Numbered from the stretch's first letter, positions 1-29,774 are shown. The stretch is DNA of 64,000 bases from Escherichia coli (GCF_044324875.1 NZ_CP172185.1), one strand, 5' to 3'. Notes: generated from the sequence alone by a model not told the origin. A program made the numbers and translations.

Positions 1-1404
1 GTGTCACTTTCGCTTTGGCAGCAGTGTCTTGCCCGATTGCAGGATGAGTTACCAGCCACAGAATTCAGTATGTGGATACGCCCATTGCAGGCGGAACTGA
101 GCGATAACACGCTGGCCCTGTACGCGCCAAACCGTTTTGTCCTCGATTGGGTACGGGACAAGTACCTTAATAATATCAATGGACTGCTAACCAGTTTCTG
201 CGGAGCGGATGCCCCACAGCTGCGTTTTGAAGTCGGCACCAAACCGGTGACGCAAACGCCACAAGCGGCAGTGACGAGCAACGTCGCGGCCCCTGCACAG
301 GTGGCGCAAACGCAGCCGCAACGTGCTGCGCCTTCTACGCGCTCAGGTTGGGATAACGTCCCGGCCCCGGCAGAACCGACCTATCGTTCTAACGTAAACG
401 TCAAACACACGTTTGATAACTTCGTTGAAGGTAAATCTAACCAACTGGCGCGCGCGGCGGCTCGCCAGGTGGCAGATAACCCTGGCGGTGCCTATAACCC
501 GTTGTTCCTTTATGGCGGCACGGGTCTGGGTAAAACTCACCTGCTGCATGCGGTGGGTAACGGCATTATGGCGCGCAAGCCGAATGCCAAAGTGGTTTAT
601 ATGCACTCCGAGCGCTTTGTTCAGGACATGGTTAAAGCCCTGCAAAACAACGCGATCGAAGAGTTTAAACGCTACTACCGTTCCGTAGATGCACTGCTGA
701 TCGACGATATTCAGTTTTTTGCTAATAAAGAACGATCTCAGGAAGAGTTTTTCCACACCTTCAACGCCCTGCTGGAAGGTAATCAACAGATCATTCTCAC
801 CTCGGATCGCTATCCGAAAGAGATCAACGGCGTTGAGGATCGTTTGAAATCCCGCTTCGGCTGGGGGCTGACTGTGGCGATCGAACCGCCAGAGCTGGAA
901 ACCCGCGTGGCGATCCTGATGAAAAAGGCCGACGAAAACGACATTCGTTTGCCGGGCGAAGTGGCGTTCTTTATCGCCAAGCGTCTACGATCTAACGTAC
1001 GTGAGCTGGAAGGCGCGCTGAACCGCGTTATTGCTAACGCCAACTTTACCGGACGGGCGATCACCATCGACTTCGTGCGTGAGGCGCTGCGCGACTTGCT
1101 GGCATTGCAGGAAAAACTGGTCACCATCGACAATATTCAGAAGACGGTGGCGGAGTACTACAAGATCAAAGTCGCGGATCTCCTTTCCAAGCGTCGATCC
1201 CGCTCGGTGGCGCGTCCGCGCCAGATGGCGATGGCGCTGGCGAAAGAACTGACTAACCACAGTCTGCCGGAGATTGGCGATGCGTTTGGTGGCCGTGACC
1301 ACACGACGGTGCTTCATGCCTGCCGTAAGATCGAGCAGCTGCGTGAAGAGAGCCACGATATCAAAGAAGATTTTTCCAATTTAATCAGAACATTGTCATC
1401 GTAA
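1..1404 (+). CDS. dnaA: Chromosomal replication initiator DnaA (467 aa, GTG start)
   Basis: Full-length ORF; Walker A motif [10 protein letters not shown]-terminal DnaA-box binding domain; followed by dnaN-recF-gyrB in canonical order. Confidence 0.97.
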
Positions 1405-1408
1405 ACCT

Positions 1409-2508
1409 ATGAAATTTACCGTAGAACGTGAGCATTTATTAAAACCGCTACAACAGGTGAGCGGGCCGTTAGGTGGTCGTCCTACGCTACCGATTCTCGG
1501 TAATCTGCTGTTACAGGTTGCTGACGGTACGTTGTCGCTGACCGGTACTGATCTCGAGATGGAAATGGTGGCACGCGTTGCGCTGGTTCAGCCACACGAA
1601 CCAGGGGCGACGACCGTTCCGGCGCGCAAATTCTTTGATATCTGCCGTGGTCTGCCTGAAGGCGCGGAAATTGCCGTGCAGCTGGAAGGTGAGCGTATGC
1701 TGGTGCGCTCCGGGCGTAGCCGTTTTTCGCTGTCTACCCTGCCAGCGGCGGATTTCCCGAACCTCGATGACTGGCAGAGCGAAGTCGAATTTACCCTGCC
1801 GCAGGCGACGATGAAGCGTCTGATTGAAGCGACCCAGTTTTCTATGGCGCATCAGGACGTTCGCTATTACTTAAACGGTATGCTGTTTGAAACCGAAGGC
1901 GAAGAACTGCGCACCGTGGCGACCGACGGCCACCGCCTGGCGGTCTGCTCCATGCCAATTGGTCAATCTTTGCCAAGCCATTCGGTGATCGTGCCGCGTA
2001 AAGGCGTGATTGAACTGATGCGTATGCTCGACGGCGGCGACAATCCGCTGCGCGTGCAGATTGGCAGCAACAACATTCGCGCCCACGTTGGCGACTTTAT
2101 CTTCACCTCGAAACTGGTGGATGGTCGCTTCCCGGATTACCGACGCGTTCTGCCGAAGAACCCGGACAAACATCTGGAAGCAGGTTGCGATCTCCTCAAG
2201 CAGGCGTTTGCTCGCGCGGCAATTCTCTCTAACGAGAAATTCCGCGGCGTACGTCTGTATGTCAGCGAAAACCAGCTGAAAATCACCGCCAACAACCCGG
2301 AACAGGAAGAAGCGGAAGAGATCCTCGACGTTACCTATAGCGGTGCGGAGATGGAAATCGGCTTCAATGTCAGCTATGTGCTGGATGTTCTGAACGCGCT
2401 GAAATGTGAAAACGTGCGCATGATGCTGACCGATTCGGTTTCCAGCGTGCAGATTGAAGATGCCGCATCACAGTCGGCTGCCTATGTTGTCATGCCAATG
2501 AGACTGTA

Positions 2509-2509
<1 letters not shown>
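1409..2509 (+). CDS. dnaN: DNA polymerase III beta sliding clamp (366 aa)
   Basis: ORF translation [21 protein letters not shown]...; begins 5 bp after dnaA stop. Confidence 0.97.
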
Positions 2510-6025
<3,516 letters not shown>

Positions 6026-6035
6026 TGGCGTTAAC

Positions 6036-6150
6036 AATGCGAGCGTGCCTGATGCGCTACGCTTATCAGGCCTACGAGACTCCTGCAATATATTGAATTT
6101 GCATGATTTTGTAGGCCGGATCAGACGTTAACGCCGCATCCGGCAAGAAG
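6036..6150. repeat. REP/BIME-type palindromic units downstream of gyrB
   Basis: Imperfect palindromes gcctgatgcgctacgcttatcaggcctac and tgtaggccggatcagacgttaacgccgcatccggca, typical of enterobacterial REP elements. Confidence 0.6.
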
Positions 6151-6159
6151 CTATAAGAA

Positions 6160-6190
6160 AAGGGCGGAGATCATCTTCGCCCTTTTTATT
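6160..6190 (+). terminator. Rho-independent terminator
   Basis: GC stem GGGCG...CGCCC followed by a T-tract. Confidence 0.55.
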
Positions 6191-6264
6191 TCTGCAATCC
6201 GCAATTATCATCCCGCAGATCTATACTTTTTGAGTCAACACGTAACGCTTTACAGGTGATTATC

Positions 6265-6663
6265 ATGGGGCTTTTTGATGAAGTTGTCGGTGCCTTTCTG
6301 AAAGGCGATGCGGGGAAATATCAGGCCATTTTGAGCTGGGTTGAGGAGCAGGGCGGCATTCAGGTGCTGCTGGAAAAACTGCAAAGTGGCGGTTTAGGTG
6401 CCATTCTCTCAACCTGGCTGAGTAATCAACAGGGCAATCAATCGGTTAGCGGCGAGCAACTGGAATCAGCGCTCGGCACAAATGCGGTGTCCGATCTCGG
6501 GCAAAAACTGGGCGTGGATACCAGTACAGCTTCCAGTTTACTGGCAGAACAATTGCCGAAGATTATTGATGCGCTCTCACCGCAAGGTGAAGTGTCACCA
6601 CAAGCCAATAACGATCTGCTTTCCGCAGGCATGGAACTGCTGAAAGGGAAACTCTTCCGCTAA
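6265..6663 (+). CDS. yidB: DUF937-family protein YidB (132 aa)
   Basis: ORF translation from MGLFDEVVGAFLKGDAG...; ATG at 6265 preferred over the upstream GTG used by the track. Confidence 0.88.
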   Translation: MGLFDEVVGAFLKGDAGKYQAILSWVEEQGGIQVLLEKLQSGGLGAILSTWLSNQQGNQSVSGEQLESALGTNAVSDLGQKLGVDTSTASSLLAEQLPKIIDALSPQGEVSPQANNDLLSAGMELLKGKLFR

Positions 6664-6777
6664 GCAAATGGGGAGCACGCAACGCGCGTTGCATCCCCCT
6701 TTTCCTTCGGGTGTTGTACTGATTTTTGAGCGGAATCGCGTTAGCATGGGTCAGGAACCAATCTACCTGGGGAACTC

Positions 6778-7590
6778 ATGGCTATCAAACTCATTGCTAT
6801 CGATATGGATGGCACCCTTCTGCTGCCCGATCACACCATTTCACCCGCTGTTAAAAATGCGATTGCCGCAGCTCGCGCCCGTGGCGTAAATGTCGTGCTG
6901 ACGACGGGCCGCCCTTATGCAGGTGTTCATAATTACCTGAAAGAGCTGCATATGGAACAGCCGGGCGACTACTGCATTACTTACAACGGTGCGCTGGTGC
7001 AGAAGGCCGCTGATGGTAGCACCGTGGCGCAAACCGCTCTCAGCTATGACGACTACCGTTTCCTGGAAAAACTCTCTCGCGAAGTCGGTTCTCATTTCCA
7101 CGCCCTGGACCGCACCACGCTGTATACAGCAAATCGCGATATCAGCTACTACACGGTGCATGAATCCTTCGTTGCCACCATTCCGCTGGTGTTCTGCGAA
7201 GCGGAGAAAATGGACCCCAATACCCAGTTCCTGAAAGTGATGATGATTGATGAACCCGCCATCCTCGACCAGGCTATCGCGCGTATTCCGCAGGAAGTGA
7301 AAGAGAAATATACCGTGCTGAAAAGTGCGCCGTATTTCCTCGAAATCCTCGATAAACGCGTTAACAAGGGTACGGGTGTGAAATCACTGGCCGACGTGTT
7401 AGGTATTAAACCGGAAGAAATCATGGCGATTGGCGATCAGGAAAACGACATCGCAATGATTGAATATGCAGGCGTCGGTGTGGCGATGGATAATGCTATT
7501 CCTTCGGTGAAAGAAGTGGCGAACTTTGTCACCAAATCCAACCTTGAAGATGGCGTGGCGTTTGCTATTGAGAAGTATGTGCTGAATTAA
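6778..7590 (+). CDS. yidA: HAD-family sugar phosphatase YidA (270 aa)
   Basis: HAD motif I (IAIDMDGTLL) at N-terminus and motif IV (GDQENDIAM) near C-terminus. Confidence 0.93.
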   Translation: MAIKLIAIDMDGTLLLPDHTISPAVKNAIAAARARGVNVVLTTGRPYAGVHNYLKELHMEQPGDYCITYNGALVQKAADGSTVAQTALSYDDYRFLEKLSREVGSHFHALDRTTLYTANRDISYYTVHESFVATIPLVFCEAEKMDPNTQFLKVMMIDEPAILDQAIARIPQEVKEKYTVLKSAPYFLEILDKRVNKGTGVKSLADVLGIKPEEIMAIGDQENDIAMIEYAGVGVAMDNAIPSVKEVANFVTKSNLEDGVAFAIEKYVLN

Positions 7591-7596
7591 TCAGTG

Positions 7597-7628
7597 AACG
7601 GGCAAACGGCATGAATGCGTTTGCCCGC
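7597..7628. terminator. Hairpin between convergent yidA and yidX
   Basis: Inverted repeat cgggcaaacg...cgtttgcccg. Confidence 0.45.
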
Positions 7629-7633
7629 AGCGA

Positions 7634-7975
7634 TTAACAATTTCTGGTCGTGCATAAAATCAGGAACTGGAGTGGTGACGTTACTATATCCAGCGTAAGA
7701 GTGACTGGCAGCAGCGCATTAACGAGGCCGCGCGGGACGCCATCTGTTGCTTTGTACTCATAAAATCCCACCGTAAAGGGTTGATGGAAAACCATCACGT
7801 TTGAGTAATCCGCTTTTTTATTTTTCTGGTGGATTGAGCCTTTCAAACCGTCCAGCATCCATGTACAACGCCGGGTATCACAAATAAAACCATATTGTGT
7901 TGCCAGTGCCTTATCTTCTTCGTTGTTCCAGTCGTAATAGAGCGTAATAGCACCAGAGAAATTCTTATTACTGCT
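7634..7975 (-). pseudogene. yidX: yidX lipoprotein gene, C-terminal fragment, separated from its 5' part by an IS insertion
   Basis: Reading leftward from 7975 on the minus strand gives SSNKNFSGAITLYYDWNNEEDKALATQYGF...MLDGLKGSIHQKNKK... in frame to the stop at 7634; joins in frame to the fragment at 10426..10740 once the IS and one TSD copy are removed. Confidence 0.8.
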
Positions 7976-7983
7976 GCTTAAAA
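7976..7983. repeat. 8-bp target-site duplication GCTTAAAA (left copy)
   Basis: Identical 8-mer directly abuts both IS ends (7976..7983 and 10426..10433). Confidence 0.85.
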
Positions 7984-8020
7984 GTAAGCGTACAGCGAGG
8001 GCCGTATTGACGGGGATGTG

Positions 8021-9559
8021 TTATTCAGCTGGCAGTGCTATGCGCCACGGAAGCAGTTCGCTGACCCGGTTGACCGGCCAGTCTGCTATGACGCCAAGCA
8101 CATGGCGAAGGTAGCTTTCTGGATCCACGTCATTCAGTTTGCACGTCCCTATCAGGCTGTACAGTAGCGCTCCCCGCTCACCACCATGGCCAGAGCCGAA
8201 GAACAGGAAGTTTTTACGACCCAGACTTACCGCCCGCAGGGCATTTTCAGCGATGTTGTTGTCGATTTCCACCCAGCCATCGTTCGCATAGTACGTCAGT
8301 GCCGGCCACTGGTTAAGTGCGTACGCGAACGCCTTCGCCAACTCTGAGTGTCGCGACAGGGTCTTCATCTTTTCACGCAACCAGCTTTCCAGGGATTTCA
8401 ACAGCGGTTTCGTTTTTCGCTGACGTTCAGCAAGCCGCTGCTCTGCCGGCATTCCCCTTATATCCGCCTCTATGGCGTACAACTGACCGATCTGCTCCAG
8501 GGCTTCTTCCGTCAGTGCTGACGGGATGCGGACGTGCACATCGTGGATCTTTCGGCGGGCATGAGCCCAGCAGGCAGCTTCCGTTATCCCACCATTGCGA
8601 TACAGCTCGTTGAACCCGGCGTACGCATCCGCTTGCAGCACACCGCTGAAGCAAGCAAGATGAGTCTGCGGATGGATGCCTTTTCTGTCCGGGCTGTAAG
8701 CGAACCACACTGCAGGTGCCAACGCTGACCCGGCATTGCGGTCATCACGAACATACGCCCACAACCGCCCGGTCTTCGTCTTCTTATTACCCGGCATCAG
8801 TACCTGGACCGGGGTATCATCGGCATGGAGTTTGCCGTCAGTCATGACATAGCCATGAAGCGCCTCTTCCAGCGGAGACAGCAGCCGGCAGCATGCATCC
8901 ACCCAGCCCGACAGCAGTGAACGGCTCAGCTCCACACCTTGCCGGCCGTATATTTCTGACTGGCGATACAGCGGGGTGTGCTCTGCATACTTCGAGGTCA
9001 GCACGCGGGCCAGCAGCCCCGGTCCGGCGATACCCCGCTCGATGGGCCGCGAAGGTGCAGGTGCCTGCACGATGGCATCGCACTGAGTACAGGCATGTTT
9101 TTCCCGTACCGTCCGGATAACCCGGAAGGCGCTACGCATCAACTCCAGCTGTTCGGCGGTATCCTCGCCCAGATAGCTCAGTGAACCGCCGCAGTTCGGG
9201 CAGCACGGCGCCGCAGGCAACAGTCGCTTTTCGTCACGGGGTAGTGATTCAGGGAACGGCTTACGGATGCGGGTCTGACGCAACGGACGCTGTACTGCCG
9301 GGTCATACACCCTACCAGTCAGCGTATCGCTCTCTTTCTGAAGCTGGTTCAGATCGGCTTCCATTTGTGCGATACGGCGGGAGACTTTTTCGGAACGACT
9401 GCCGAAGTTCATCCGGCGGAGTTTATCCAGCTGCGCCTGCAGATGGTCTATTTCGCGCTCCCGGTTGCTCAGCTTTTCCTGCAGGGCGTGGATCAGCGCT
9501 TCCTGTTCGGCCAGGCGCTGTTTCAGCAGGAAGATGTCGTCAGAAGAGATGTCGTTCAT
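8021..9559 (-). CDS. IS66-family transposase TnpC (512 aa)
   Basis: N-terminal leucine-zipper/coiled coil, Cys cluster CCPNCGG...CTQC, DDE-type core. Confidence 0.92.
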
Positions 9560-9608
9560 AAGCCCGTATTTTACCGGGCTTATTCTGTGACAACCAGGAT
9601 AAAGAGAT

Positions 9609-9956
9609 TTACAGCATGGTCAGGGAGGTCAGCAGCCGCTTAGGCTGTCGCCAGTCGATACCTTCCAGCAGCATCGCCAGCTGCGCCTGTGTAAGGAACA
9701 CTTTGCCATCACGGGCTGACGGCCAGGCGAAGCGCCCACGCTCCAGCCGTTTGGTCAGGAGGCACAGTCCGTCACCGGTGGACCACAGCAGTTTAACCTG
9801 ACTGCCGCTGCGGCCCCGGAAAATGAAAACATGGCCGGACATGGGATCGTCTTTCAGCGCCGTCTGTACTTTCGCAGCCAGGCCGTTGAAGCCATTTCTC
9901 ATATCGGTGATACCGGCAACCAGCCAAATTTTGGTCCCGGAAGGTAAAGGGATCAT
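9609..9956 (-). CDS. IS66-family accessory protein TnpB (115 aa)
   Basis: Translation [30 protein letters not shown]...; overlaps tnpA stop by 4 nt. Confidence 0.9.
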
Positions 9957-10354
9957 CGCTTCAGTTCCTGTATCAGCAGAGTCAGGAGCTTTTCGCTGAC
10001 ATTGCCATTGAAGCGGAGCGTCCCGTGCCGGAACGTTACCTCACAGCTGATACTGAGGGTTTCCGGGTCCTCTGCGAGCGATTCTGGCTGTTCGGCAGCT
10101 GCATCGAGAGTCACAGGAAGTAGCTGGGGGCTCTCTGAAGAAGGTAATAGCAGCTTTCCCTCGCGCCATTGTTGTCGCCATTTGAACAACAGATTGGCGT
10201 TAATGCCATTTTCAAGAGCAAGTTTTGAGATGGATATCCCGGGTTCACAGGAGGCAGCAACGAGCTGCTGTTTAAATTCGGGAGGATAATTAGGGCAGCC
10301 TTTTCGCCTGCCGGGAGTCACATTTTTCTGCATATCTGACACTTTGGTTCCCAC
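9953..10354 (-). CDS. IS66-family accessory protein TnpA (133 aa)
   Basis: First ORF inside the IS, upstream of tnpB/tnpC on the same strand. Confidence 0.85.
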   Translation of the reverse strand: MGTKVSDMQKNVTPGRRKGCPNYPPEFKQQLVAASCEPGISISKLALENGINANLLFKWRQQWREGKLLLPSSESPQLLPVTLDAAAEQPESLAEDPETLSISCEVTFRHGTLRFNGNVSEKLLTLLIQELKR

Positions 10355-10425
10355 TACTTATTTGGTGGACACCACTTTGTCTAATTCGTCAGATTCTGAC
10401 CAGACGGTTCAGGCTGTACGCTTAC

Positions 10426-10433
10426 GCTTAAAA
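10426..10433. repeat. 8-bp target-site duplication GCTTAAAA (right copy)
   Basis: Matches 7976..7983. Confidence 0.85.
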
Positions 10434-10740
10434 TAAATTTCGCGTTATCAGAAACGGTGATTCTTTCACCATGAATTGCCGGATCGTTCAGCATTTTAAC
10501 CACCTCATCGCCGCCGGTGGTCAACAGATAGTCCAACGATTCACCAACAAAAACATAGCCTTTCGTACCGTTACTATCTTCTGCCAGCGATAAACCCTTA
10601 ATCGTGTCTGACCGCCATTGCTCGGCATGTGGAGGGCTTGCAGTATTGGAAACCAATCCCCAGGTGATACATCCGGTCAACGCAAATGCCAAAGAACACA
10701 AACCGGCAGCCTTAAAAAATCCCTTAAAATTCAACTTCAT
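10426..10740 (-). pseudogene. yidX: yidX lipoprotein gene, N-terminal fragment (lipoprotein signal peptide with lipobox LTGC), truncated by IS insertion
   Basis: Start [24 protein letters not shown] at 10740; the reading frame runs into IS sequence at 10425 and ends after 15 IS-encoded codons. Confidence 0.8.
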
Positions 10741-10877
10741 GATTAATCCTTTAAACGAGTAGCTAAGCCGTTGAAAGCATACTCTTCTTTCCCTCCTGTT
10801 TAGCGCCTGATATCCCTTTTCAGATTTCTGCCCGACGCATGTCATTTTTTTATGCATTGTTCTTTTTGTGATCTAAA

Positions 10878-10909
10878 TTGTAGTACAACAGTATAAGTTT
10901 GTACTACAT
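10878..10909. promoter_or_regulatory. Putative DgoR operator (two inverted-repeat half sites) in the dgo promoter region
   Basis: TTGTAGTACAA and TTGTACTACAT repeats about 110 bp upstream of dgoR; GntR-family operators are short palindromes of this kind. Confidence 0.45.
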
Positions 10910-11017
10910 TACGCACACGGCAAACGCGAACGTCATCACGCTGGTACTACAAAGTTGCCGCGTTATGCATCGATCGGGGTAAAGTAGAGAAGAACATACA
11001 GAGCACAAGGACTCTCC

Positions 11018-11707
11018 ATGACTCTCAATAAAACCGATCGCATCGTCATTACGCTGGGTAAACAGATCGTTCACGGCAAATACGTGCCAGGCTCGCCGCT
11101 TCCGGCTGAGGCGGAACTCTGTGAGGAGTTTGCAACCTCGCGCAACATCATCCGTGAGGTGTTCCGCTCGCTGATGGCGAAGCGGCTGATTGAAATGAAA
11201 CGTTATCGCGGGGCGTTTGTGGCACCGCGTAACCAGTGGAATTACCTCGACACTGACGTACTGCAATGGGTGCTGGAAAACGACTACGACCCACGGCTTA
11301 TCAGTGCAATGAGCGAAGTGCGAAATCTGGTGGAACCGGCGATTGCCCGTTGGGCGGCAGAACGCGCGACCTCCAGCGATCTGGCGCAGATTGAATCGGC
11401 GCTGAACGAGATGATTGCCAACAATCAGGACCGCGAAGCGTTTAACGAAGCGGATATTCGCTACCACGAGGCGGTGCTGCAGTCGGTGCATAACCCGGTG
11501 TTACAGCAACTTAGCATTGCGATCAGTTCGCTGCAGCGGGCGGTTTTTGAACGAACCTGGATGGGCGATGAGGCCAACATGCCGCAAACGCTCCAGGAAC
11601 ATAAGGCGCTGTTCGATGCGATACGGCATCAGGACGGCGATGCGGCAGAGCAGGCGGCGCTTACCATGATCGCCAGCTCGACACGAAGGTTAAAGGAAAT
11701 CACATGA
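11018..11707 (+). CDS. dgoR: GntR/FadR-family repressor of galactonate operon (229 aa)
   Basis: N-terminal GntR HTH; first gene of dgoRKADT. Confidence 0.95.
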   Translation: MTLNKTDRIVITLGKQIVHGKYVPGSPLPAEAELCEEFATSRNIIREVFRSLMAKRLIEMKRYRGAFVAPRNQWNYLDTDVLQWVLENDYDPRLISAMSEVRNLVEPAIARWAAERATSSDLAQIESALNEMIANNQDREAFNEADIRYHEAVLQSVHNPVLQQLSIAISSLQRAVFERTWMGDEANMPQTLQEHKALFDAIRHQDGDAAEQAALTMIASSTRRLKEIT

Positions 11708-12582
11708 CAGCTCGCTACATCGCAATTGACTGGGGATCGACCAATCTGCGCGCCTGGCTTTATCATGGCGACCACTGCCTGGAGAGCAGGCAATCAGAAG
11801 CAGGCGTCACGCGTCTGAACGGAAAATCTCCGGCTGCGGTGTTAGCAGAAGTGACGACCGACTGGCGTGAAGAGAATACGCCAGTGGTAATGGCAGGAAT
11901 GGTCGGCAGCAATGTCGGCTGGAAAGTCGCGCCGTATTTATCCGTTCCTGCACGTTTTTCGTCTATTGGCGAACAATTAACGTCGGTTGGCGACAATATC
12001 TGGATTATTCCCGGATTATGCGTCTCTCATGACGATAACCACAATGTGATGCGCGGCGAAGAAACACAATTGATCGGCGCGCGCACTTTGGCTCCTTCCT
12101 CTCTTTATGTTATGCCCGGAACCCATTGCAAATGGGTGCAGGCCGATAGCCAGCAAATCAACGATTTTCGCACCGTAATGACCGGTGAATTACATCATTT
12201 ACTGTTAAATCACTCATTGATTGGCGCAGGTTTGCCGCCGCAGGAAAACTCTGCCGATGCCTTCGTGGCTGGCCTTGAGCGTGGCCTTAATGCGCCCGCC
12301 ATATTGCCGCAGCTTTTTGAAGTTCGCGCCTCGCATGTGCTGGGAACGCTTCCCCGCGAACAGGTCAGCGAATTTCTCTCTGGTTTGTTGATTGGCGCAG
12401 AGGTTGCCAGTATGCGCGACTATGTGGCCCATCAACACGCCATCACCCTTGTCGCCGGAACATCGCTGACCGCGCGCTACCAGCAAGCCTTTCAGGCGAT
12501 GGGTTGCGACGTGGCGGCGGTGGCGGGTGACACGGCATTTCAGGCTGGTATAAGGAGCATCGCTCATGCAGTGGCAAACTAA
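11704..12582 (+). CDS. dgoK: 2-dehydro-3-deoxygalactonokinase (292 aa)
   Basis: Start overlaps dgoR stop (ATGA); operon context. Confidence 0.94.
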   Translation: MTARYIAIDWGSTNLRAWLYHGDHCLESRQSEAGVTRLNGKSPAAVLAEVTTDWREENTPVVMAGMVGSNVGWKVAPYLSVPARFSSIGEQLTSVGDNIWIIPGLCVSHDDNHNVMRGEETQLIGARTLAPSSLYVMPGTHCKWVQADSQQINDFRTVMTGELHHLLLNHSLIGAGLPPQENSADAFVAGLERGLNAPAILPQLFEVRASHVLGTLPREQVSEFLSGLLIGAEVASMRDYVAHQHAITLVAGTSLTARYQQAFQAMGCDVAAVAGDTAFQAGIRSIAHAVAN

Positions 12583-13183
12583 ACTCCCGCTGATCGCCAT
12601 TTTGCGCGGTATTACGCCCGACGAGGCGCTGGCGCATGTTGGCGCGGTGATTGACGCCGGGTTCGACGCGGTTGAAATCCCGCTGAATTCCCCACAATGG
12701 GAGCAGAGCATTCCCGCCATCGTTGATGCGTATGGCGACAAGGCGTTGATTGGCGCAGGTACGGTACTGAAACCTGAACAGGTCGATGTGCTCGCCAGGA
12801 TGGGCTGCCAGCTCATCGTTACGCCCAATATCCATAGTGAAGTGATCCGCCGTGCGGTGGGCTACGGCATGACCGTTTGCCCCGGCTGCGCGACGGCGAC
12901 CGAAGCCTTTACCGCGCTCGACGCGGGTGCGCAGGCGCTGAAAATATTCCCTTCATCGGCTTTTGGTCCGCAATACATCAAAGCGTTAAAAGCGGTATTA
13001 CCACCGGACATCGCAGTCTTTGCCGTTGGCGGCGTGACGCCAGAAAACCTGGCGCAGTGGATAGACGCAGGTTGTGCAGGGGCAGGCTTAGGCAGCGATC
13101 TCTATCGCGCCGGGCAGTCCATAGAACGCACCGCGCAGCAGGCAGCAGCATTTGTTAAGGCGTATCGAGAGGCAGTGCAATGA
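12566..13183 (+). CDS. dgoA: 2-dehydro-3-deoxy-6-phosphogalactonate aldolase (205 aa)
   Basis: KDPG-aldolase-like sequence; overlaps dgoK end. Confidence 0.94.
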
Positions 13184-14328
13184 AAATCACCAAAATTACC
13201 ACGTATCGTTTACCTCCCCGCTGGATGTTCCTGAAAATTGAAACCGATGAAGGCGTGGTCGGCTGGGGCGAGCCCGTGATCGAAGGCCGCGCCCGTACAG
13301 TGGAAGCGGCAGTTCACGAACTGAGCGACTATTTGATTGGTCAGGATCCATCGCGCATCAATGACTTATGGCAAGTGATGTATCGCGCCGGATTTTATCG
13401 TGGCGGTCCAATCCTGATGAGCGCCATCGCCGGGATCGACCAGGCGTTATGGGATATCAAAGGCAAAGTGCTGAATGCGCCGGTGTGGCAACTGATGGGC
13501 GGCCTGGTTCGCGACAAAATTAAAGCCTACAGTTGGGTCGGCGGCGATCGTCCGGCGGATGTTATCGACGGCATTAAAACCCTGCGTGAAATCGGCTTCG
13601 ATACCTTCAAACTGAACGGTTGTGAAGAACTGGGGCTAATTGATAACTCCCGCGCGGTAGATGCGGCAGTCAACACCGTGGCACAAATTCGTGAAGCTTT
13701 TGGCAATCAGATTGAGTTTGGTCTTGATTTCCACGGTCGCGTCAGCGCGCCGATGGCGAAAGTGCTGATTAAAGAACTGGAGCCGTATCGCCCGCTGTTT
13801 ATTGAAGAGCCGGTGCTGGCGGAACAAGCCGAATACTACCCGAAACTGGCGGCACAAACGCATATTCCACTGGCGGCGGGTGAGCGCATGTTCTCACGCT
13901 TCGATTTTAAACGTGTGCTGGAGGCAGGCGGTATTTCGATTCTGCAACCGGATCTCTCCCACGCAGGCGGTATTACCGAATGCTACAAAATTGCCGGAAT
14001 GGCAGAAGCCTATGACGTGACCCTTGCGCCGCACTGTCCGCTCGGACCGATTGCACTGGCGGCTTGCCTGCATATCGACTTTGTTTCCTATAACGCCGTA
14101 CTTCAGGAACAAAGTATGGGAATTCATTACAACAAAGGCGCGGAGTTACTCGACTTTGTGAAAAACAAAGAAGACTTCAGCATGGTTGGCGGCTTCTTTA
14201 AACCGCTAACGAAACCGGGCTTAGGCGTGGAAATCGACGAAGCTAAAGTTATTGAGTTCAGTAAAAATGCCCCGGACTGGCGTAATCCGCTCTGGCGTCA
14301 TGAAGATAACAGCGTAGCAGAGTGGTAA
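13180..14328 (+). CDS. dgoD: D-galactonate dehydratase (382 aa), enolase superfamily
   Basis: Translation [32 protein letters not shown]... Confidence 0.96.
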
Positions 14329-14447
14329 TTCCTGCCACGTAAGCCCCTCATCGGGCACTAAAACAGTAATACAAAAATATAACCCTCTGTAAATTACAGG
14401 GCATGGTGAGCGGCTTCGCTATGCCCAAAATCTGGAGAAAGCTCGCT

Positions 14448-15740
14448 ATGGATATTCCCGTTAATGCAGCAAAGCCGGGGCGTCGGCGTTATCTGACGCT
14501 GGTGATGATCTTTATTACGGTGGTCATTTGTTATGTTGACCGCGCTAACCTGGCCGTGGCTTCCGCTCATATTCAGGAAGAGTTCGGCATTACGAAAGCG
14601 GAAATGGGCTATGTATTTTCGGCCTTCGCATGGCTTTATACGTTATGCCAGATCCCCGGCGGTTGGTTTTTAGATCGCGTAGGTTCTCGCGTGACTTATT
14701 TTATTGCGATATTTGGCTGGTCAGTGGCGACTTTATTCCAGGGCTTTGCCACGGGATTAATGTCATTAATTGGTCTGCGCGCGATAACCGGTATTTTCGA
14801 AGCGCCCGCTTTCCCGACCAATAACCGGATGGTGACCAGCTGGTTCCCGGAACATGAACGCGCTTCCGCCGTTGGTTTTTATACGTCTGGTCAGTTTGTC
14901 GGTCTGGCGTTTCTGACTCCGCTGCTGATCTGGATTCAGGAAATGTTGAGCTGGCACTGGGTGTTCATTGTCACCGGTGGTATCGGCATTATCTGGTCGC
15001 TGATTTGGTTTAAGGTTTATCAGCCGCCGCGCCTGACTAAAGGCATCAGCAAAGCTGAACTGGATTACATTCGTGATGGCGGCGGTCTGGTGGATGGTGA
15101 TGCGCCGGTGAAAAAAGAGGCACGTCAGCCGTTAACAGCCAAAGACTGGAAACTGGTGTTCCATCGTAAACTGATCGGTGTCTATCTTGGGCAATTTGCG
15201 GTGGCTTCTACACTGTGGTTTTTCTTAACCTGGTTCCCGAACTATTTAACCCAGGAAAAAGGAATCACGGCGCTGAAAGCAGGCTTTATGACCACGGTGC
15301 CATTCCTCGCGGCGTTTGTCGGCGTCCTGCTCTCTGGCTGGGTCGCGGATCTGCTGGTACGTAAGGGCTTTTCACTGGGCTTTGCGCGTAAAACGCCGAT
15401 TATCTGCGGCTTGCTGATCTCCACCTGCATTATGGGCGCTAACTACACTAACGATCCGATGATGATTATGTGCCTGATGGCGCTGGCATTCTTCGGTAAC
15501 GGTTTTGCTTCGATTACCTGGTCGCTGGTTTCTTCTCTGGCACCGATGCGCCTGATTGGTTTAACCGGCGGCGTGTTTAACTTTGCCGGTGGTCTGGGCG
15601 GCATCACCGTTCCGTTGGTGGTGGGTTACCTGGCGCAGGGTTACGGTTTCGCGCCTGCACTGGTTTATATCTCCGCCGTCGCGTTGATTGGCGCGCTCTC
15701 TTACATCCTGCTGGTGGGCGATGTGAAGCGCGTTGGCTAA
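14448..15740 (+). CDS. dgoT: D-galactonate:H+ symporter, MFS (430 aa)
   Basis: Start taken at [11 protein letters not shown] (ORF track starts 15 codons upstream); 12-TM MFS-like hydrophobicity. Confidence 0.92.
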
Positions 15741-16801
15741 TCTTTCAACTGTGGAATATGCGCCACACCACTGCGCATAATCCACTTTCTTAAAGCCGGT
15801 GCGGTCAGGCATCGGCTTTTTACTATTTTGCCGAAGAGTTTTAAACGCAGTTTGCGGGTGGCGCGCCAGTAGGCGGCGTTGCTCTTCTCCGGCTGCTTCA
15901 GTAACACCGAACGCAGAATCTCTGCGCTATCCAGCGCATAGCTAATCCCCTCCAGCGAACTGGCGCTGATAAATCCCGCCGCTTCACCAATCAGAAAGGC
16001 ATTGTCCTTACCGCAGACAAAATCCTGCCAGCGTGAGGGAAACAACACGGTACATTTCTCACTTTTCACCGCTTTGCCAAACTGGAACTGAAAGGCGCTC
16101 ATTTTCTCTTTCAGCGTCGTGAAACGCGTCTGACCGTCTTTCATGGGATAGGCACCGCCAAAGATAAAATAACCGTCTTTGCTGATACTCCATGAATAAC
16201 AGTCAGTTATCGCATTATCAAAGATGCAGGAGTAGAACGGTACCGGATGTTTCTCTGCAAACCACAGCTGGATAGCGACATATTTACGAATTTGATGGTC
16301 CGGGTAGAGATGTCGCCGCACCATCGAGTTGGCACCATCGGCACCGACCAGATAGCGGGCGGTAATATGCTGCTCCCAACCGTCTGCACGAAAAATGACA
16401 TGCCATTTATCATCCTCACGCCAGATTTTTCGACACAGGCTGTCGTGGTAAACCTCAACGCTGGCGGGGATCAGCGATTTCATCCACAAGTCGAAAGCAT
16501 GGCGATTAATATTGATATAGCTTCGCTGGTAGTTACGCGTGAGCGATGCGGCGACGTCGACGGTTTTGACGCTGAAAATCTGTGGATTGGCGATCACATC
16601 GACAGGAAGCGTCAGTCCATCGCGAATAAAAGATCGCTGCGCGTCCGGTGCCAGCAGACCGCCGCAAGGTTTGCTGAAACCTTCAGTACCACACTGGTGC
16701 TTTTTATCCAGCGCGATCACCTGCATTTTGCCGGCTAACTTTCGTGCCAACGCCGACCCTGCCGGGCCGAGGCCAATAATCGCCACGTCGAAATGTTCCA
16801 T
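15737..16801 (-). CDS. cbrA: FAD-dependent oxidoreductase CbrA (354 aa)
   Basis: N-terminal FAD fold motif [15 protein letters not shown]; start taken at MEHFDV. Confidence 0.9.
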
Positions 16802-16868
16802 CTTTTCACTCACATTCATCACGATGGCGAAAGACTATTGTCTGAAAGTGAAGTCCTTGTGAAGTATG

Positions 16869-18116
16869 ATGGCGGGAACCGTTTTGTATCAGGACCGCGC
16901 CATGAAACAGATAACCTTTGCTCCCCGTAATCACCTGCTCACCAATACCAATACCTGGACGCCCGACAGCCAGTGGTTGGTATTTGACGTGCGTCCTTCA
17001 GGGGCGTCGTTTACCGGCGAGACCATTGAGCGTGTGAATATCCATACCGGCGAGGTCGAGGTTATCTATCGCGCGTCACAGGGCGCGTACGTCGGCGTGG
17101 TGACCGTTCATCCGAAGTCAGAGAAATATGTTTTCATCCACGGCCCGGAAAATCCTGATGAAACATGGTATTACGACTTCCATCATCGGCGCGGAGTGAT
17201 TGTTGAAGGCGGCAAGGTGAGCAATCTCGATCCAATGGATATTACCGCGCCGTACACCCCAGGAGCACTGCGCGGCGGCAGCCATGTGCATGTCTTTAGC
17301 CCGAACGGAGAAAGGGTGAGCTTTACCTATAACGACCATGTAATGCATCAACTCGATTCGGCGCTGGATTTGCGAAACGTCGGTGTTGCGGCACCGTTTG
17401 GCCCGGTCAACGTACAAAAGCAGCATCCGCGTGAATACAGCGGTAGCCACTGGTGCGTGCTGGTGAGTAAAACCACGCCTACGCCGCAGCCTGGCAGCGA
17501 TGAAATCAATCGTGCTTATGAAGAAGGATGGGTAGGAAATCACGCGCTGGCGTTTATTGGCGACACACTTTCGCCAAAGGGCGAGAAAGTGCCGGAGCTG
17601 TTTATCGTTGAGTTACCGCAAGATGAAGCTGGCTGGAAAGCAGCAGGTGATGCGCCGTTAGGTGGAACGGAAACAACCCTGCCCGCGCCACCGCGTGGCG
17701 TCGTGCAGCGACGTTTAACCTTTACCCACCATCGGGCTTATCCGGGGTTAGTCAACGTCCCGCGCCACTGGGTGCGCTGTAATCCGCAGGGTACGCAAAT
17801 CGCGTTTTTAATGCGTGATGATAACGGCATTGTGCAACTGTGGCTTATCTCGCCACAAGGCGGCGAGCCGCGCCAGTTAACCCATAACAAAACGGATATT
17901 CAGTCTGCATTTAACTGGCATCCGTCAGGAGAATGGTTGGGCTTTGTGCTGGATAATCGAATTGCTTGCGCCCATGCGCAAAGCGGCGAGGTTGAGTATT
18001 TAACCGAAAACCACGCCAATCCACCTTCTGCGGACGCCGTGGTCTTCTCGCCGGATGGTCAGTGGCTGGCGTGGATGGAAGGTGGCCAGCTGTGGATCAC
18101 CGAAACTGATCGCTAA
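16869..18116 (+). CDS. yidR: DUF3748 beta-propeller protein YidR
   Basis: Long ORF; start ambiguous among ATGs at 16866, 16869 and 16902 (the last has the best SD, AGGA). Confidence 0.85.
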   Translation: MAGTVLYQDRAMKQITFAPRNHLLTNTNTWTPDSQWLVFDVRPSGASFTGETIERVNIHTGEVEVIYRASQGAYVGVVTVHPKSEKYVFIHGPENPDETWYYDFHHRRGVIVEGGKVSNLDPMDITAPYTPGALRGGSHVHVFSPNGERVSFTYNDHVMHQLDSALDLRNVGVAAPFGPVNVQKQHPREYSGSHWCVLVSKTTPTPQPGSDEINRAYEEGWVGNHALAFIGDTLSPKGEKVPELFIVELPQDEAGWKAAGDAPLGGTETTLPAPPRGVVQRRLTFTHHRAYPGLVNVPRHWVRCNPQGTQIAFLMRDDNGIVQLWLISPQGGEPRQLTHNKTDIQSAFNWHPSGEWLGFVLDNRIACAHAQSGEVEYLTENHANPPSADAVVFSPDGQWLAWMEGGQLWITETDR

Positions 18117-18117
18117 A

Positions 18118-18450
18118 TCAGTTATCAGGCATTCTGGCGGGTGGAATAACCGCATTGGTGGCTTGCGCGTTGGCTTCGCTTTTTTCAACGCGCGAGCGCA
18201 CCGAGCTGTCTTTGCGGAACACGTCCCACGGCAGTAAAAGCGTGTCCATTACAGCGGTAAACGGCATATCGAGAATCGCCAGCGACTTAGTGCCCCAGTT
18301 GGTTTCATCGTCGCCAATCATGGTGGCGCTGGCGCGGGTGCCGGGATATGTTCCTTCTTTCCCCCCGGTATGGGACATCACGCTGGAGCATCCTCCAAGT
18401 AATGTCATTCCGCTGCATATCATGAACGCTAACAACACATTTCTTATCAT
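18118..18450 (-). CDS. yidQ: DUF1375 lipoprotein YidQ (110 aa)
   Basis: Signal peptide plus lipobox LLGGC; start taken at MIRNVLLAFMICSG. Confidence 0.85.
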   Translation of the reverse strand: MIRNVLLAFMICSGMTLLGGCSSVMSHTGGKEGTYPGTRASATMIGDDETNWGTKSLAILDMPFTAVMDTLLLPWDVFRKDSSVRSRVEKSEANAQATNAVIPPARMPDN

Positions 18451-18624
18451 AATAAATTCATCTGTTGATCGTGGGTGTTGGCCTGATGAGTTATAGCGAT
18501 CCCTTGCTGAAAATAACATCATCATTACGTCGCACTGTGGCGGCTATCGCACTTTAACGTTTCGTGCTGCCCCCTCAGTCTATGCAATAGACCATAAACT
18601 GCAAAAAAAAGTCCGCTGATAAGG

Positions 18625-18654
18625 CTTGAAAAGTTCATTTCCAGACCCATTTTT
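18625..18654 (+). promoter_or_regulatory. sigma32 heat-shock promoter of ibpA
   Basis: CTTGAAA (-35), 14-bp spacer, CCCATTTT (-10), matching the sigma32 consensus CTTGAAA/CCCCATnT. Confidence 0.65.
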
Positions 18655-18659
18655 ACATC

Positions 18660-18755
18660 GTAGCCGATGAGGACGCGCCTGATGGGTGTTCTGGCTACCT
18701 GACCTGTCCATTGTGGAAGGTCTTACATTCTCGCTGATTTCAGGAGCTATTGATT
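18660..18755 (+). promoter_or_regulatory. ibpA 5' UTR (ROSE-like RNA thermometer)
   Basis: Long leader between the sigma32 promoter and the ibpA SD; known thermosensor location. Structure not verified by folding. Confidence 0.4.
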
Positions 18756-19169
18756 ATGCGTAACTTTGATTTATCCCCGCTTTACCGTTCTGCTATTGGA
18801 TTTGACCGTTTGTTTAACCACTTAGAAAACAACCAGAGCCAGAGTAATGGCGGCTACCCTCCGTATAACGTTGAACTGGTAGACGAAAACCATTACCGCA
18901 TTGCTATCGCTGTGGCTGGTTTTGCTGAGAGCGAACTGGAAATTACCGCCCAGGATAATCTGCTGGTGGTGAAAGGTGCTCACGCCGACGAACAAAAAGA
19001 GCGCACCTATCTGTACCAGGGCATCGCTGAACGCAACTTTGAACGCAAATTCCAGTTAGCTGAGAACATTCATGTTCGTGGCGCTAACCTGGTAAATGGC
19101 TTGCTGTATATCGATCTCGAACGCGTGATTCCGGAAGCGAAAAAACCGCGCCGTATCGAAATCAACTAA
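18756..19169 (+). CDS. ibpA: Small heat-shock protein IbpA (137 aa)
   Basis: Translation [27 protein letters not shown]...; alpha-crystallin domain. Confidence 0.96.
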
Positions 19170-19280
19170 TTCCCTAAGGCCGCCTGGCGCGGCCTGACAT
19201 CTCCATGCTCGCCGTCAGGGAGCATATGCGAATCTTCGGATTTGCAGGTACTTACTCGCTTCTTAGAAGGAGAAATGACT

Positions 19281-19709
19281 ATGCGTAACTTCGATTTATC
19301 CCCACTGATGCGTCAATGGATCGGTTTTGACAAACTGGCCAACGCACTGCAAAACGCCGGTGAAAGCCAGAGCTTCCCGCCGTACAACATTGAGAAAAGC
19401 GACGATAACCACTACCGCATTACCCTTGCGCTGGCAGGTTTTCGTCAGGAAGATTTAGAGATTCAACTGGAAGGTACGCGCCTGAGCGTAAAAGGCACGC
19501 CGGAGCAGCCAAAAGAAGAGAAAAAATGGCTGCATCAAGGGCTTATGAATCAGCCATTTAGCCTGAGCTTTACGCTGGCTGAAAATATGGAAGTCTCTGG
19601 TGCAACCTTCGTAAACGGTTTACTGCATATTGATTTAATTCGTAATGAGCCTGAACCCATCGCAGCGCAGCGTATCGCTATCAGCGAACGTCCCGCGTTA
19701 AATAGCTAA
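19281..19709 (+). CDS. ibpB: Small heat-shock protein IbpB (142 aa)
   Basis: Translation [24 protein letters not shown]...; paralog of ibpA. Confidence 0.96.
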
Positions 19710-19724
19710 CTAGCTATTCTCTTT

Positions 19725-19752
19725 GCCCCGCCATTCTGGTGGGGCTTTTTTT
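19725..19752 (+). terminator. Rho-independent terminator of ibpAB
   Basis: GCCCCGCC-loop-GGTGGGGC followed by TTTTTTT. Confidence 0.7.
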
Positions 19753-19904
19753 GTCTTTCTTCTTCAACAATGCGTTAAATTTCGCCTGTTTAAGATATTT
19801 CGGCACGTTCTTTCCCGTGATAATGTGCGCTATAAGGCAAATCTGCTTCACCGATTCAGCCATAATCCGTAGCAATTAAAATGTTATCTCAAGAGAAATG
19901 GACG

Positions 19905-21566
19905 ATGAGTGATATAGCATTAACGGTCAGTATTCTGGCTTTGGTGGCAGTCGTCGGTTTGTTTATCGGCAACGTCAAATTTCGCGGCATAGGATTAGGT
20001 ATTGGCGGCGTGCTGTTTGGTGGGATCATCGTCGGCCATTTTGTTTCTCAGGCGGGGATGACATTAAGTAGCGATATGCTGCATGTTATTCAGGAATTTG
20101 GCCTGATCCTGTTCGTTTATACCATCGGGATTCAGGTAGGGCCGGGCTTCTTTGCCTCATTGCGCGTCTCCGGATTACGCCTCAACCTGTTTGCTGTTCT
20201 GATCGTCATCATCGGGGGTCTGGTTACCGCCATCCTGCATAAACTGTTTGATATTCCACTGCCGGTAGTGCTGGGGATTTTCTCCGGTGCGGTAACCAAT
20301 ACGCCAGCGCTGGGGGCAGGGCAGCAGATCTTGCGCGACCTGGGTACACCAATGGAAATGGTCGATCAGATGGGGATGAGTTACGCGATGGCGTATCCAT
20401 TCGGCATTTGCGGGATTTTGTTCACCATGTGGATGTTGCGGGTTATTTTCCGCGTCAATGTCGAGACAGAAGCCCAGCAGCACGAGTCTTCTCGCACCAA
20501 TGGCGGCGCGCTGATCAGGACTATCAATATTCGCGTTGAGAACCCTAACCTGCATGATTTAGCCATTAAAGATGTGCCGATTCTCAACGGCGACAAAATT
20601 ATCTGCTCGCGTCTGAAACGCGAAGAAACCCTAAAAGTACCTTCGCCAGATACCATTATCCAACTGGGCGATTTGCTGCATCTGGTGGGGCAGCCAGCGG
20701 ATTTACATAATGCGCAACTGGTGATTGGTCAGGAGGTCGATACCTCGCTGTCCACGAAAGGCACTGATTTACGCGTCGAGCGTGTGGTGGTCACCAATGA
20801 AAACGTGCTTGGTAAGCGTATTCGCGACCTGCACTTTAAAGAACGCTATGACGTTGTTATCTCGCGCCTGAACCGTGCCGGGGTCGAACTGGTCGCCAGT
20901 GGCGATATCAGCCTGCAGTTCGGCGATATCCTCAACCTGGTGGGGCGTCCGTCCGCAATTGATGCCGTTGCCAATGTGCTGGGGAATGCGCAGCAAAAAC
21001 TGCAACAGGTTCAGATGCTGCCGGTGTTTATTGGTATCGGGCTTGGCGTATTGTTAGGTTCTATTCCCGTCTTTGTGCCGGGATTCCCGGCCGCGTTGAA
21101 ACTGGGGCTGGCGGGCGGTCCGCTGATTATGGCGTTGATCCTCGGGCGTATCGGCAGTATCGGCAAGCTGTACTGGTTTATGCCGCCAAGCGCCAACCTC
21201 GCGCTGCGGGAGCTGGGGATCGTGCTGTTCCTCTCGGTAGTGGGGCTGAAATCTGGTGGGGATTTTGTGAATACCCTGGTCAATGGCGAAGGGCTAAGCT
21301 GGATTGGTTATGGGGCCCTGATCACCGCCGTTCCGCTGATTACTGTTGGTATTCTGGCGCGGATGTTAGCCAAAATGAATTACCTGACCATGTGCGGGAT
21401 GCTGGCTGGCTCCATGACCGATCCACCGGCGCTGGCATTTGCTAATAATCTTCATCCAACGAGCGGTGCGGCGGCGCTTTCTTACGCCACTGTCTATCCG
21501 TTAGTGATGTTCCTGCGCATTATCACCCCCCAATTACTGGCGGTGCTCTTCTGGAGTATCGGTTAA
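19905..21566 (+). CDS. yidE: AAE-family (YidE/YbjL) duplicated-domain transporter (553 aa)
   Basis: Two membrane domains separated by TrkA_C-like segments; start taken at [14 protein letters not shown]. Confidence 0.92.
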
Positions 21567-22279
21567 CTCTTTTCCGGGTGGAGTCGCCGTAAATGGTACT
21601 CCACCTGGTATTCGTTGGCATTTCTGAACATTACTGAATAATTCAAAAACTCCCCGCTCTCGCTATATGACAACGAGGTGATCCGCAGCAGTGGCGTGTG
21701 TTCCGCTACCTTCATTTGCCGCGCCAGCAGTCTATCGGCGAGCACCGGCGTCAGGCTTTCATAATTACCGCCAATCAGAATCCCGCACTCTTGTTCAATA
21801 TATTCAAACTTCGACCCTTCCAGATGTTGCAGCGAAAGGTTACGGAACAGTTTTACCGGCATATAGCTGTCTTCCAGCATCAGCGGTTTCCCTTCCACAA
21901 AACGAACGCGACGGGAGAAGTAGATCTGCTCGTTGATTTGAATCCGTAACTGGCTGGCAATGGCCGGAGGCGCAGGCATGATTTCAAAAATCAGCACCTG
22001 GCTGGTGACCGTTTTTCCCTGGCGTTTTAACACCTCCACCAGCCCGGTCAGACTGGCGGTTTGATGCAGTACATCTTTGCGCACCAGGTAAGTGCCGCTA
22101 CCGTGGCGGCGGACCACCAGCCCCCACGCTACCAGCAGGTCAATGGCTTTACGGATGGTCATCCGCGATACCGCAAATTCTTCCGCCAACTTTTTTTCAC
22201 CGGGAAGAAGGCTGTTTAGCGTGAAATCCGCGGAGTTAAGTCGAATTCTTAACCGCTCCGCAATGCTTTTGTAGATCAT
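21563..22279 (-). CDS. yidP: GntR/HutC-family transcriptional regulator (238 aa)
   Basis: N-terminal GntR HTH ([20 protein letters not shown]) plus UTRA-like C-terminus. Confidence 0.92.
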
Positions 22280-22573
22280 CTCTAGATCTCTTTTTTGCCT
22301 GCAAGCCCGGGTAATGCGCCCACAAGTTCTGCTTAATCGATTGAAAAAAATCTTTTTTTTAAAGATGTGTTCGATGCTGTGTACCAGTGCTCACAGATGT
22401 CTACTTTTTCGCGAAAACGTAGATCTCTACCGCCCAACGAAAAGCATGAAAGCGATCACGAATCCCATTGGGTCGTCATGTTCTGCCGATCGCATCTTCC
22501 TATCCTCGCTCCAGGCCTGCCGCATAACCAATCAGGCTTCCTACTTACAGAATTGAGAAAAGAGGATGTGGAA

Positions 22574-26402
<3,829 letters not shown>

Positions 26403-26568
26403 TTTAATATCCCTCCGGCGAATTATGCTCACAACCTGAACTTAACAGAAAACAATCCGTTCAGGGATACGATGTTTGTATTTTAAGAATCTGACTGCCT
26501 GACCCGACGCATTTTACCTCTCCCTATATTCATGCGTCCGGGACATAAACATAAATAAGGGCTATGAG

Positions 26569-28284: not shown

Positions 28285-29774
28285 AACGCCCCAATTTTCT
28301 GTTCATCATGACCGATACCCAGGCCACCAATATGGTCGGTTGCTATAGCGGTAAACCGCTGAATACGCAAAATATTGATAGTCTGGCGGCGGAAGGTATT
28401 CGCTTTAATTCCGCCTACACTTGTTCACCGGTTTGTACACCAGCGCGCGCCGGGCTGTTTACCGGTATCTACGCTAACCAGTCCGGCCCGTGGACCAACA
28501 ACATCGCGCCAGGCAAAAACATTTCCACCATGGGGCGCTACTTTAAGGATGCGGGCTATCACACCTGTTACATTGGCAAATGGCATCTCGACGGTCATGA
28601 CTATTTCGGCACTGGCGAGTGTCCGCCGGAGTGGGACGCTGATTACTGGTTCGATGGGGCGAACTACCTTAGCGAACTGACGGAAAAAGAGATCAGCCTG
28701 TGGCGCAATGGCCTAAACAGCGTTGAGGATTTACAGGCGAACCATATCGACGAAACCTTCACCTGGGCGCACCGCATCAGCAATCGGGCGGTAGATTTTC
28801 TGCAACAGCCCGCGCGTGCCGAGGACCCCTTCCTGATGGTGGTTTCGTATGATGAGCCGCATCACCCGTTCACCTGTCCGGTGGAGTATTTAGAGAAATA
28901 CGCTGATTTTTACTACGAACTTGGCGAGAAATCACAGGATGACCTGGCGAAAAAACCGGAACATCACCGCTTATGGGCGCAGGCGATGCCATCGCCAGTA
29001 GGTGATGACGGGCTTTATCACCATCCGCTCTATTTTGCCTGCAATGACTTTGTTGATGACCAAATCGGACGGGTCATCAATGCCTTAACGCCAGAGCAAC
29101 GTGAAAATACGTGGGTCATTTATACCTCCGATCACGGTGAAATGATGGGTGCACATAAGCTGATCAGTAAAGGAGCGGCGATGTATGACGACATCACCCG
29201 TATTCCGCTGATCATCCGTTCGCCGCAAGGGGAGCGGCGACAGGTCGATACGCCAGTCAGTCATATCGATTTACTGCCGACAATGATGGCGCTGGCAGAT
29301 ATTGAAAAACCAGAGATTCTGCTGGGGGAAAATATCCTTGCAGTGAAAGAGCCACGCGGCGTAATGGTGGAATTTAACCGCTACGAGATTGAGCATGACA
29401 GCTTTGGCGGTTTTATTCCGGTGCGTTGCTGGGTGACGGATGACTTTAAACTGGTGCTCAACCTCTTCACCAGTGATGAACTTTACGATCGCCGTAATGA
29501 TTCAAATGAAATGCATAACCTGATAGATGATATCCGTTTTGCCGACGTGCGCAGCAAAATGCATAACGCCTTATTGGATTACATGGACAAAATTCGTGAT
29601 CCGTTCCGCAGTTATCAATGGAGCCTGCGTCCGTGGCGTAAAGATGCACAGCCGCGCTGGATGGGGGCATTTCGTCCACGCCCACAAGATGGCTATTCGC
29701 CAGTGGTACGCGACTATGACACCGGCCTACCGACGCAAGGAGTGAAGGTGGAGGAGAAAAAACAGAAGTTCTGA
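28281..29774 (+). CDS. yidJ: Sulfatase-family protein (497 aa)
   Basis: Sulfatase active-site motif CSPVCTPARAGLFTG (Cys/FGly signature). Confidence 0.93.
   Translation: MKRPNFLFIMTDTQATNMVGCYSGKPLNTQNIDSLAAEGIRFNSAYTCSPVCTPARAGLFTGIYANQSGPWTNNIAPGKNISTMGRYFKDAGYHTCYIGKWHLDGHDYFGTGECPPEWDADYWFDGANYLSELTEKEISLWRNGLNSVEDLQANHIDETFTWAHRISNRAVDFLQQPARAEDPFLMVVSYDEPHHPFTCPVEYLEKYADFYYELGEKSQDDLAKKPEHHRLWAQAMPSPVGDDGLYHHPLYFACNDFVDDQIGRVINALTPEQRENTWVIYTSDHGEMMGAHKLISKGAAMYDDITRIPLIIRSPQGERRQVDTPVSHIDLLPTMMALADIEKPEILLGENILAVKEPRGVMVEFNRYEIEHDSFGGFIPVRCWVTDDFKLVLNLFTSDELYDRRNDSNEMHNLIDDIRFADVRSKMHNALLDYMDKIRDPFRSYQWSLRPWRKDAQPRWMGAFRPRPQDGYSPVVRDYDTGLPTQGVKVEEKKQKF

Follow-up and report, generated by a model that had tools for sequence, protein, structure and literature searches.

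The window analysed here, a 64-kb stretch of DNA that forms the first 64 kb of an Escherichia coli chromosome starting at dnaA, carries a mobile element inside yidX, the gene that lies between yidA and dgoR. The question is which element this is, how it came to lie within the gene, what it has left of the gene product, and whether the nearby dgo operon, whose promoter had been suggested as a possible target of its influence, is affected.

A complete ISEc8 element interrupts yidX

The initial annotation described an IS66-family element of 2,442 bp with matching terminal repeats at 7984..10425, and this was borne out both by curated protein models and by ISEc8 copies of 100% identity. The features of the insertion, counted from the first base of the window, are as follows.

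7984..10425, minus strand: complete ISEc8 (IS66 family), 2,442 bp, in the same orientation as yidX; identified by 100% identical full-length RefSeq copies
7976..7983, no strand: target-site duplication, left copy, GCTTAAAA; read from the sequence
10426..10433, no strand: target-site duplication, right copy, GCTTAAAA; read from the sequence
7984..8013, plus strand: terminal inverted repeat at the tnpC-proximal end; perfect match to the other end over the first 13 bp, GTAAGCGTACAGC
10396..10425, minus strand: terminal inverted repeat at the tnpA-proximal end; over the final 13 bp it is perfectly complementary to the other end

The element ends in GTAAGCGTACAGC and GCTGTACGCTTAC, which form a perfect inverted repeat of 13 bp; over the terminal 30 positions, 22 match. 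The perfect 8-bp target duplication that had been reported is present on both sides, and the identity between its two copies extends by zero bases in either direction. GCTTAAAA occurs three times in the 64-kb window, two of these being the flanks of ISEc8, and the chance of an exact 8-mer match at fixed flanks is about 1.5e-5. The window contains a single copy of ISEc8.

A megablast search of 5,426 complete E. coli genomes yielded full-length ISEc8 copies with 100% identity, many of them annotated, and the window copy is base-for-base identical to a fetched RefSeq copy (L002). The name that RefSeq (PGAP) gives to the identical copies is 'IS66-like element ISEc8 family transposase', plus tnpA and tnpB. 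By the ISfinder convention, isoforms share more than 95% amino-acid or more than 90% DNA identity; the DNA of the window copy is, over all 2,442 bp, 100% identical to copies placed by PGAP in the 'ISEc8 family'. ISEc8 was first described from E. coli O157:H7 and is listed in ISfinder, and the window copy shares its length of 2,442 bp, its termini and its habit of 8-bp duplication, with no differences in the element. Named through the annotation of its identical RefSeq copies, the element appears to be ISEc8 itself rather than a relative. Some copies annotated as ISEc8, including one on an O157:H7 plasmid, have about 98% identity in the terminal regions, and the window copy is accordingly the commonest ISEc8 variant, not necessarily the type copy.

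Further comparison with six identical copies, located at other sites in other genomes, showed that all six end at exactly the same bases as the window copy and that all six are flanked by an 8-bp duplication, of a different sequence in each case. Because these six copies agree, the boundaries of ISEc8 and its 8-bp duplication rule are confirmed. The ISEc8 query matched in 4,229 of the 5,426 complete genomes; among the genomes with any match, the median is 4 places and the maximum 46. One identical copy, on the chromosome of E. coli STLEFF_47 (L007:289-312 and 2730-2754), has inserted into the end of a different IS66-type element. It is flanked by the duplication GTTTACGC, with TTAC after it, and tnpA genes of other IS66-like elements are found on both sides, a nested IS66-in-IS66 arrangement.

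Gene content and family membership

The element has imperfect inverted repeats and an 8-bp duplication, as is usual in the IS66 family, where the terminal repeats are about 20-30 bp long and begin with GTAA and where an 8-bp target-site duplication is produced. 'Classic' members reportedly have the gene order tnpA-tnpB-tnpC, with the stop of tnpA and the start of tnpB overlapping in ATGA. The corresponding features within the window copy are listed below.

9953..10333, minus strand: tnpA, helix-turn-helix (HTH) accessory protein, 126 aa from the RefSeq ATG; PF01527 (HTH_Tnp_1), NF047595; RefSeq coordinates of identical copies
9609..9956, minus strand: tnpB, IS66 Orf2-type accessory protein, 115 aa; PF05717, NF033819
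8021..9559, minus strand: tnpC, DDE transposase, 512 aa; PF03050, PF13817, PF13007, PF13005, NF033517
9558..9583, minus strand: RNA hairpin at the end of the tnpB-tnpC spacer, stem of 9 bp; the A and U of the tnpC AUG are paired within the 3' arm

All IS66 matches of TnpA, TnpB and TnpC in Pfam and NCBIfam exceed the curated cut-offs. TnpC is a DDE transposase that carries the IS66 transposase domain, scoring 357 bits against PF03050 (DDE_Tnp_IS66; cut-off 23.1) and 457 bits against NF033517 (cut-off 180), and it also matches the zf-IS66, LZ_Tnp_IS66 (leucine-zipper) and IS66 C-terminal domains. Two accessory genes lie upstream of the transposase gene in the classic order; the tnpB start and the tnpA stop overlap in ATGA (overlap sequence GCGATGATCC), and tnpC starts 49 bp downstream of tnpB. 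In a mechanical ORF list, tnpA is given a GTG start at 10354 and a length of 133 aa, versus the ATG and 126 aa of RefSeq. With the inverted repeats (13 bp perfect, 22/30 overall) and the 8-bp duplication seen here and in 6/6 other copies, every sequence-testable feature of the family is present in the element. A further criterion of the family is transposition that depends on tnpA, tnpB and tnpC; the ORFs are intact and many identical copies lie at different sites with duplications, which suggests that the ISEc8 of the window is functional and potentially active.

The end of the tnpB-tnpC spacer can be folded into a hairpin whose stem arms are AUAAGCCCG and CGGGCUUAU; the 68-nt stretch that holds it has a fold energy of -20.1 kcal/mol (z = -4.15). 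In relatives that are 85-92% identical the stem is partly conserved, with one pair changed on both sides (C-G to U-A), one pair turned into G-U and one broken, while ISEc22- and ISKpn24-type elements have a different sequence at this position. The enterobacterial IS66-family elements ISEc22, ISKpn24 and IS679 have the tnpB-tnpC organisation in common with ISEc8, including a spacer of about 48-49 bp; however, they share only 79-81% identity with it in the tnpB-tnpC junction region, and their hairpin over the tnpC start differs in sequence from that of ISEc8. The hairpin at 9558..9583 may serve as a translational brake on the transposase.

The restored gene and its remnants

The gene on either side of the element was read as two fragments, and an ORF of the window runs across one of the junctions.

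10426..10740, minus strand: yidX 5' fragment, codons 1-105, with a lipoprotein signal peptide and the lipobox LTGC; read from the sequence
7634..7983, minus strand: yidX 3' fragment, consisting of the duplicated 8 bp followed by codons 106-218 and the stop; read from the sequence
10381..10857, minus strand: chimeric 158-aa ORF, with 39 upstream codons, 105 yidX codons, 14 IS codons and a stop

As had been predicted, removing the element and one copy of the duplication restored a continuous yidX. The in silico join of 7634..7983 and 10434..10740 is 657 nt long and reads through 218 codons without interruption to a terminal stop. ISEc8 sits exactly between codons 105 and 106. The first 24 residues of the restored protein form a lipoprotein signal peptide with a lipobox, and the whole product is identical to WP_000772922.1, annotated as 'YidX family protein' in strain CH4796, where the gene lies between yidA and dgoR. 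Both the full-length match to an annotated YidX and the conserved yidA-yidX-dgoR position place the restored gene in the YidX family.

In the interrupted state, the yidX frame continues after ...NAKFILS for 14 codons into the element and stops at 10381..10383. The ORF at 10381..10857 was correctly recognised beforehand as a chimera of upstream, yidX and element sequence, the 15 element codons given at that time being 14 codons plus the stop. Translation of the real product likely begins at 10740, which would give a truncated YidX of 119 aa whose last 14 aa are encoded by the element. A further ORF of 74 aa, at 7634..7858, represents an internal part of the 3' fragment. Exact lookup of the truncated YidX-IS fusion, in its 119-aa and 158-aa versions, in a large gene index returned none; this absence is weak evidence, because short-read assemblies break at IS copies.

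The insertion among complete E. coli genomes

The reconstructed empty site (1,000 bp) is 100% identical to two complete genomes, strains CH4796 and LSC52, and the yidX site was found uninterrupted in 5,421 of the 5,426 genomes searched, the query being covered to 80% or more at a single place. When both junctions (600 bp each; an example of a junction 28-mer is ACTGCTGCTTAAAAGTAAGCGTACAGCG) were searched against the same 5,426 genomes, neither was found in any. Positions 1..52420 of the window, the part compared, are collinear with the first 50 kb of strain O17_K12a, except for this insert of 2,450 bp. Set against these 5,426 genomes, the insertion is thus a lineage-specific simple transposition, and the site between codons 105 and 106 is new, a new site for a known and abundant IS being routine. 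Farther along the plus strand of the window, at 50611..60867, a 3,418-aa ORF occupies the place where O17_K12a has iatC (inverse autotransporter adhesin).

Many strains have several copies of ISEc8, at a maximum of 46 places in one genome, and repeats commonly cause misassembly, so a copy of the repeat might have been misplaced into yidX by the assembler. However, a misjoin would not yield an exact 8-bp duplication together with a gene that can be restored to the base, and both flanks are collinear with relatives; we consider the probability of such an artefact negligible. Other origins were also rejected: a composite transposon or larger island because the flanks are collinear with relatives, an IS-mediated rearrangement because the target duplication is perfect, and a decayed IS relic because all three ORFs are undamaged and match widespread copies exactly. 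A tRNA scan of the window found no tRNA, and the insertion is therefore not part of a tRNA-linked island.

The insertion had been called clean and probably recent. The perfect duplication, an element of the commonest variant, junctions present in 0 of 5,426 genomes and collinearity with a relative all agree with this description, and the identity of the flanking sequence to intact alleles likewise suggests that transposition was recent in its own lineage. Over 24.5 kb, identity to the closest complete genomes reaches only about 99%, so the source lineage is not closely represented among them and the age of the insertion within that lineage is not bounded.

Divergence of yidX alleles

The K-12 gene yidX (b3696, 'putative lipoprotein YidX') occupies the same place between yidA and dgoR as the restored gene, and both are 657 nt long and encode 218 aa with an N-terminal signal peptide and a lipobox (PMC7937436). 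However, the two proteins are only 62% identical (133/213 amino acids, E = 1e-101; K-12 gene at L009:2439-3095), whereas the flanking DNA shows about 98-99% nucleotide identity to other E. coli. The restored allele is the one annotated as 'YidX family protein' in CH4796, LSC52 and others, and 3,526 of the 5,436 records in the empty-site search fell within the 60-80% identity band. These comparisons show deeply divergent yidX alleles within E. coli, and behind the divergence of this envelope lipoprotein there may be diversifying selection or the replacement of alleles. YidX itself gave no significant match in Pfam, NCBIfam or PDB sequences.

This unusual divergence, with 62% identity of the protein against about 98-99% in the flanks, speaks for a reading in which YidX would be an envelope or surface lipoprotein under diversifying selection, such as a receptor or an antigen, and its loss through an IS knockout would itself be selected as an escape and not be a neutral hit. 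However, the insertion is a single event in a single genome, the site being uninterrupted in 5,421/5,426 complete genomes; no function, family or structure is recorded for YidX in the three resources searched; and the yidX-yidA region is in use as a neutral insertion locus (PMC12094771). We accordingly regard selection for the loss of YidX as highly improbable, and retain simple transposition into yidX as the reading of the locus.

The dgo regulatory region

The remaining suggestion of the initial annotation concerned dgoR, the promoter of which was placed about 450 bp from the insertion and was thought to be possibly affected by it. The cis-elements of the dgo operon have been mapped to -160 to -30 from the dgoR ATG (PMC6003448); among them are one site for CRP, a pair of operator repeats for DgoR and overlapping sites for RNA polymerase (PMC6003448; PMC11705089). 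In the window, the motifs that match the stretch from -160 to -100 relative to the dgoR ATG delimit the following feature.

10867..10910, plus strand: dgoRKADT regulatory core, intact and outside the insertion; motif positions matched to the published map

The CRP half-site TGTGA is at 10867, 441 bp from the end of the element at 10425, and the DgoR operator repeats are TTGTAGTACAA at 10878 and TGTACTACA at 10900, 452-474 bp from the same end. The -10 hexamer TACATT follows at 10905, and the dgoR ATG is at 11018. The distance that had been estimated is therefore about right, the interval between the element and the dgo regulatory region being about 440-480 bp. All mapped cis-elements are intact and lie at least 441 bp from ISEc8; the intervening DNA consists of about 315 bp of the yidX reading frame plus the entire yidX-dgoR intergenic region. 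The genes of the element are transcribed away from dgoR. A consensus scan for promoters and terminators, run over 7400..11200, detected no promoter-like site near either end of the element, outward or otherwise; it gave one such site in the whole of this interval, fewer than in shuffles.

These data bear on the view that the insertion is regulatory or adaptive and that it changes expression of the divergent dgoRKADT operon through an outward promoter, supercoiling or a disrupted upstream element. The operon serves galactonate use, and dgoR is a recurrent mutation target during gut colonisation (bioRxiv 10.1101/2022.01.11.475860); in addition, the element ends 441 bp from the most upstream mapped dgo element. 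However, this view is opposed by the intact state of every mapped cis-element (PMC6003448), by the coding and intergenic sequence that intervenes, by the direction of the IS genes and by the result of the promoter scan, and the adaptive dgoR changes that have been published are loss-of-function changes within dgoR, not distant insertions. A regulatory role of the insertion thus seems very improbable to us, and the proposed effect of ISEc8 on dgo expression is unsupported speculation.

Discussion

We are almost certain that a full-length ISEc8 transposed into the chromosomal yidX and duplicated an 8-bp target, and none of the results speaks against this. In this event, ISEc8 entered between yidX codons 105 and 106, in the orientation of yidX, with duplication of the target GCTTAAAA. 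The element encodes the usual IS66 trio, namely TnpA with an HTH, the accessory protein TnpB, and the DDE transposase TnpC with its leucine-zipper and zinc-finger domains, and tnpB is predicted to be translationally coupled to tnpA through the ATGA overlap.

With the yidX frame ended by ISEc8 after 105 native and 14 IS-encoded residues, full-length YidX is lost, and what could still be made is at most a shortened lipoprotein, 119 residues long as long as its signal peptide is attached. Since yidX is monocistronic and convergent with yidA, a polar effect on the neighbouring genes is not expected, and the control region of the dgo operon is untouched by the insertion. Between the convergent yidA and yidX stops lies a G+C-rich inverted repeat, GGGCAAACG...CGTTTGCCC at 7599..7626, probably a terminator for both directions; any read-through from the element into the yidX 3' fragment would then be stopped ahead of yidA. 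The loss of YidX would presumably be of little phenotypic consequence.

A non-neutral insertion, in which the knockout of a hypervariable YidX or a subtle change in dgo expression is advantageous to the lineage, appears very unlikely; if it were true, yidX would be a hotspot of diversifying selection and its loss by IS insertion an escape route. The transposition of ISEc8 into yidX is instead a known element in a new place, an ordinary strain-specific insertion that implies no new biology, and its importance beyond annotation is little. For the annotation of this strain, it makes yidX a pseudogene, and neither the 158-aa nor the 74-aa ORF is a gene, both being fragments. The two junctions provide a lineage-specific marker usable for strain typing by PCR, and with the intact, consensus-identical ISEc8 the strain has a potentially active member of the IS66 family.
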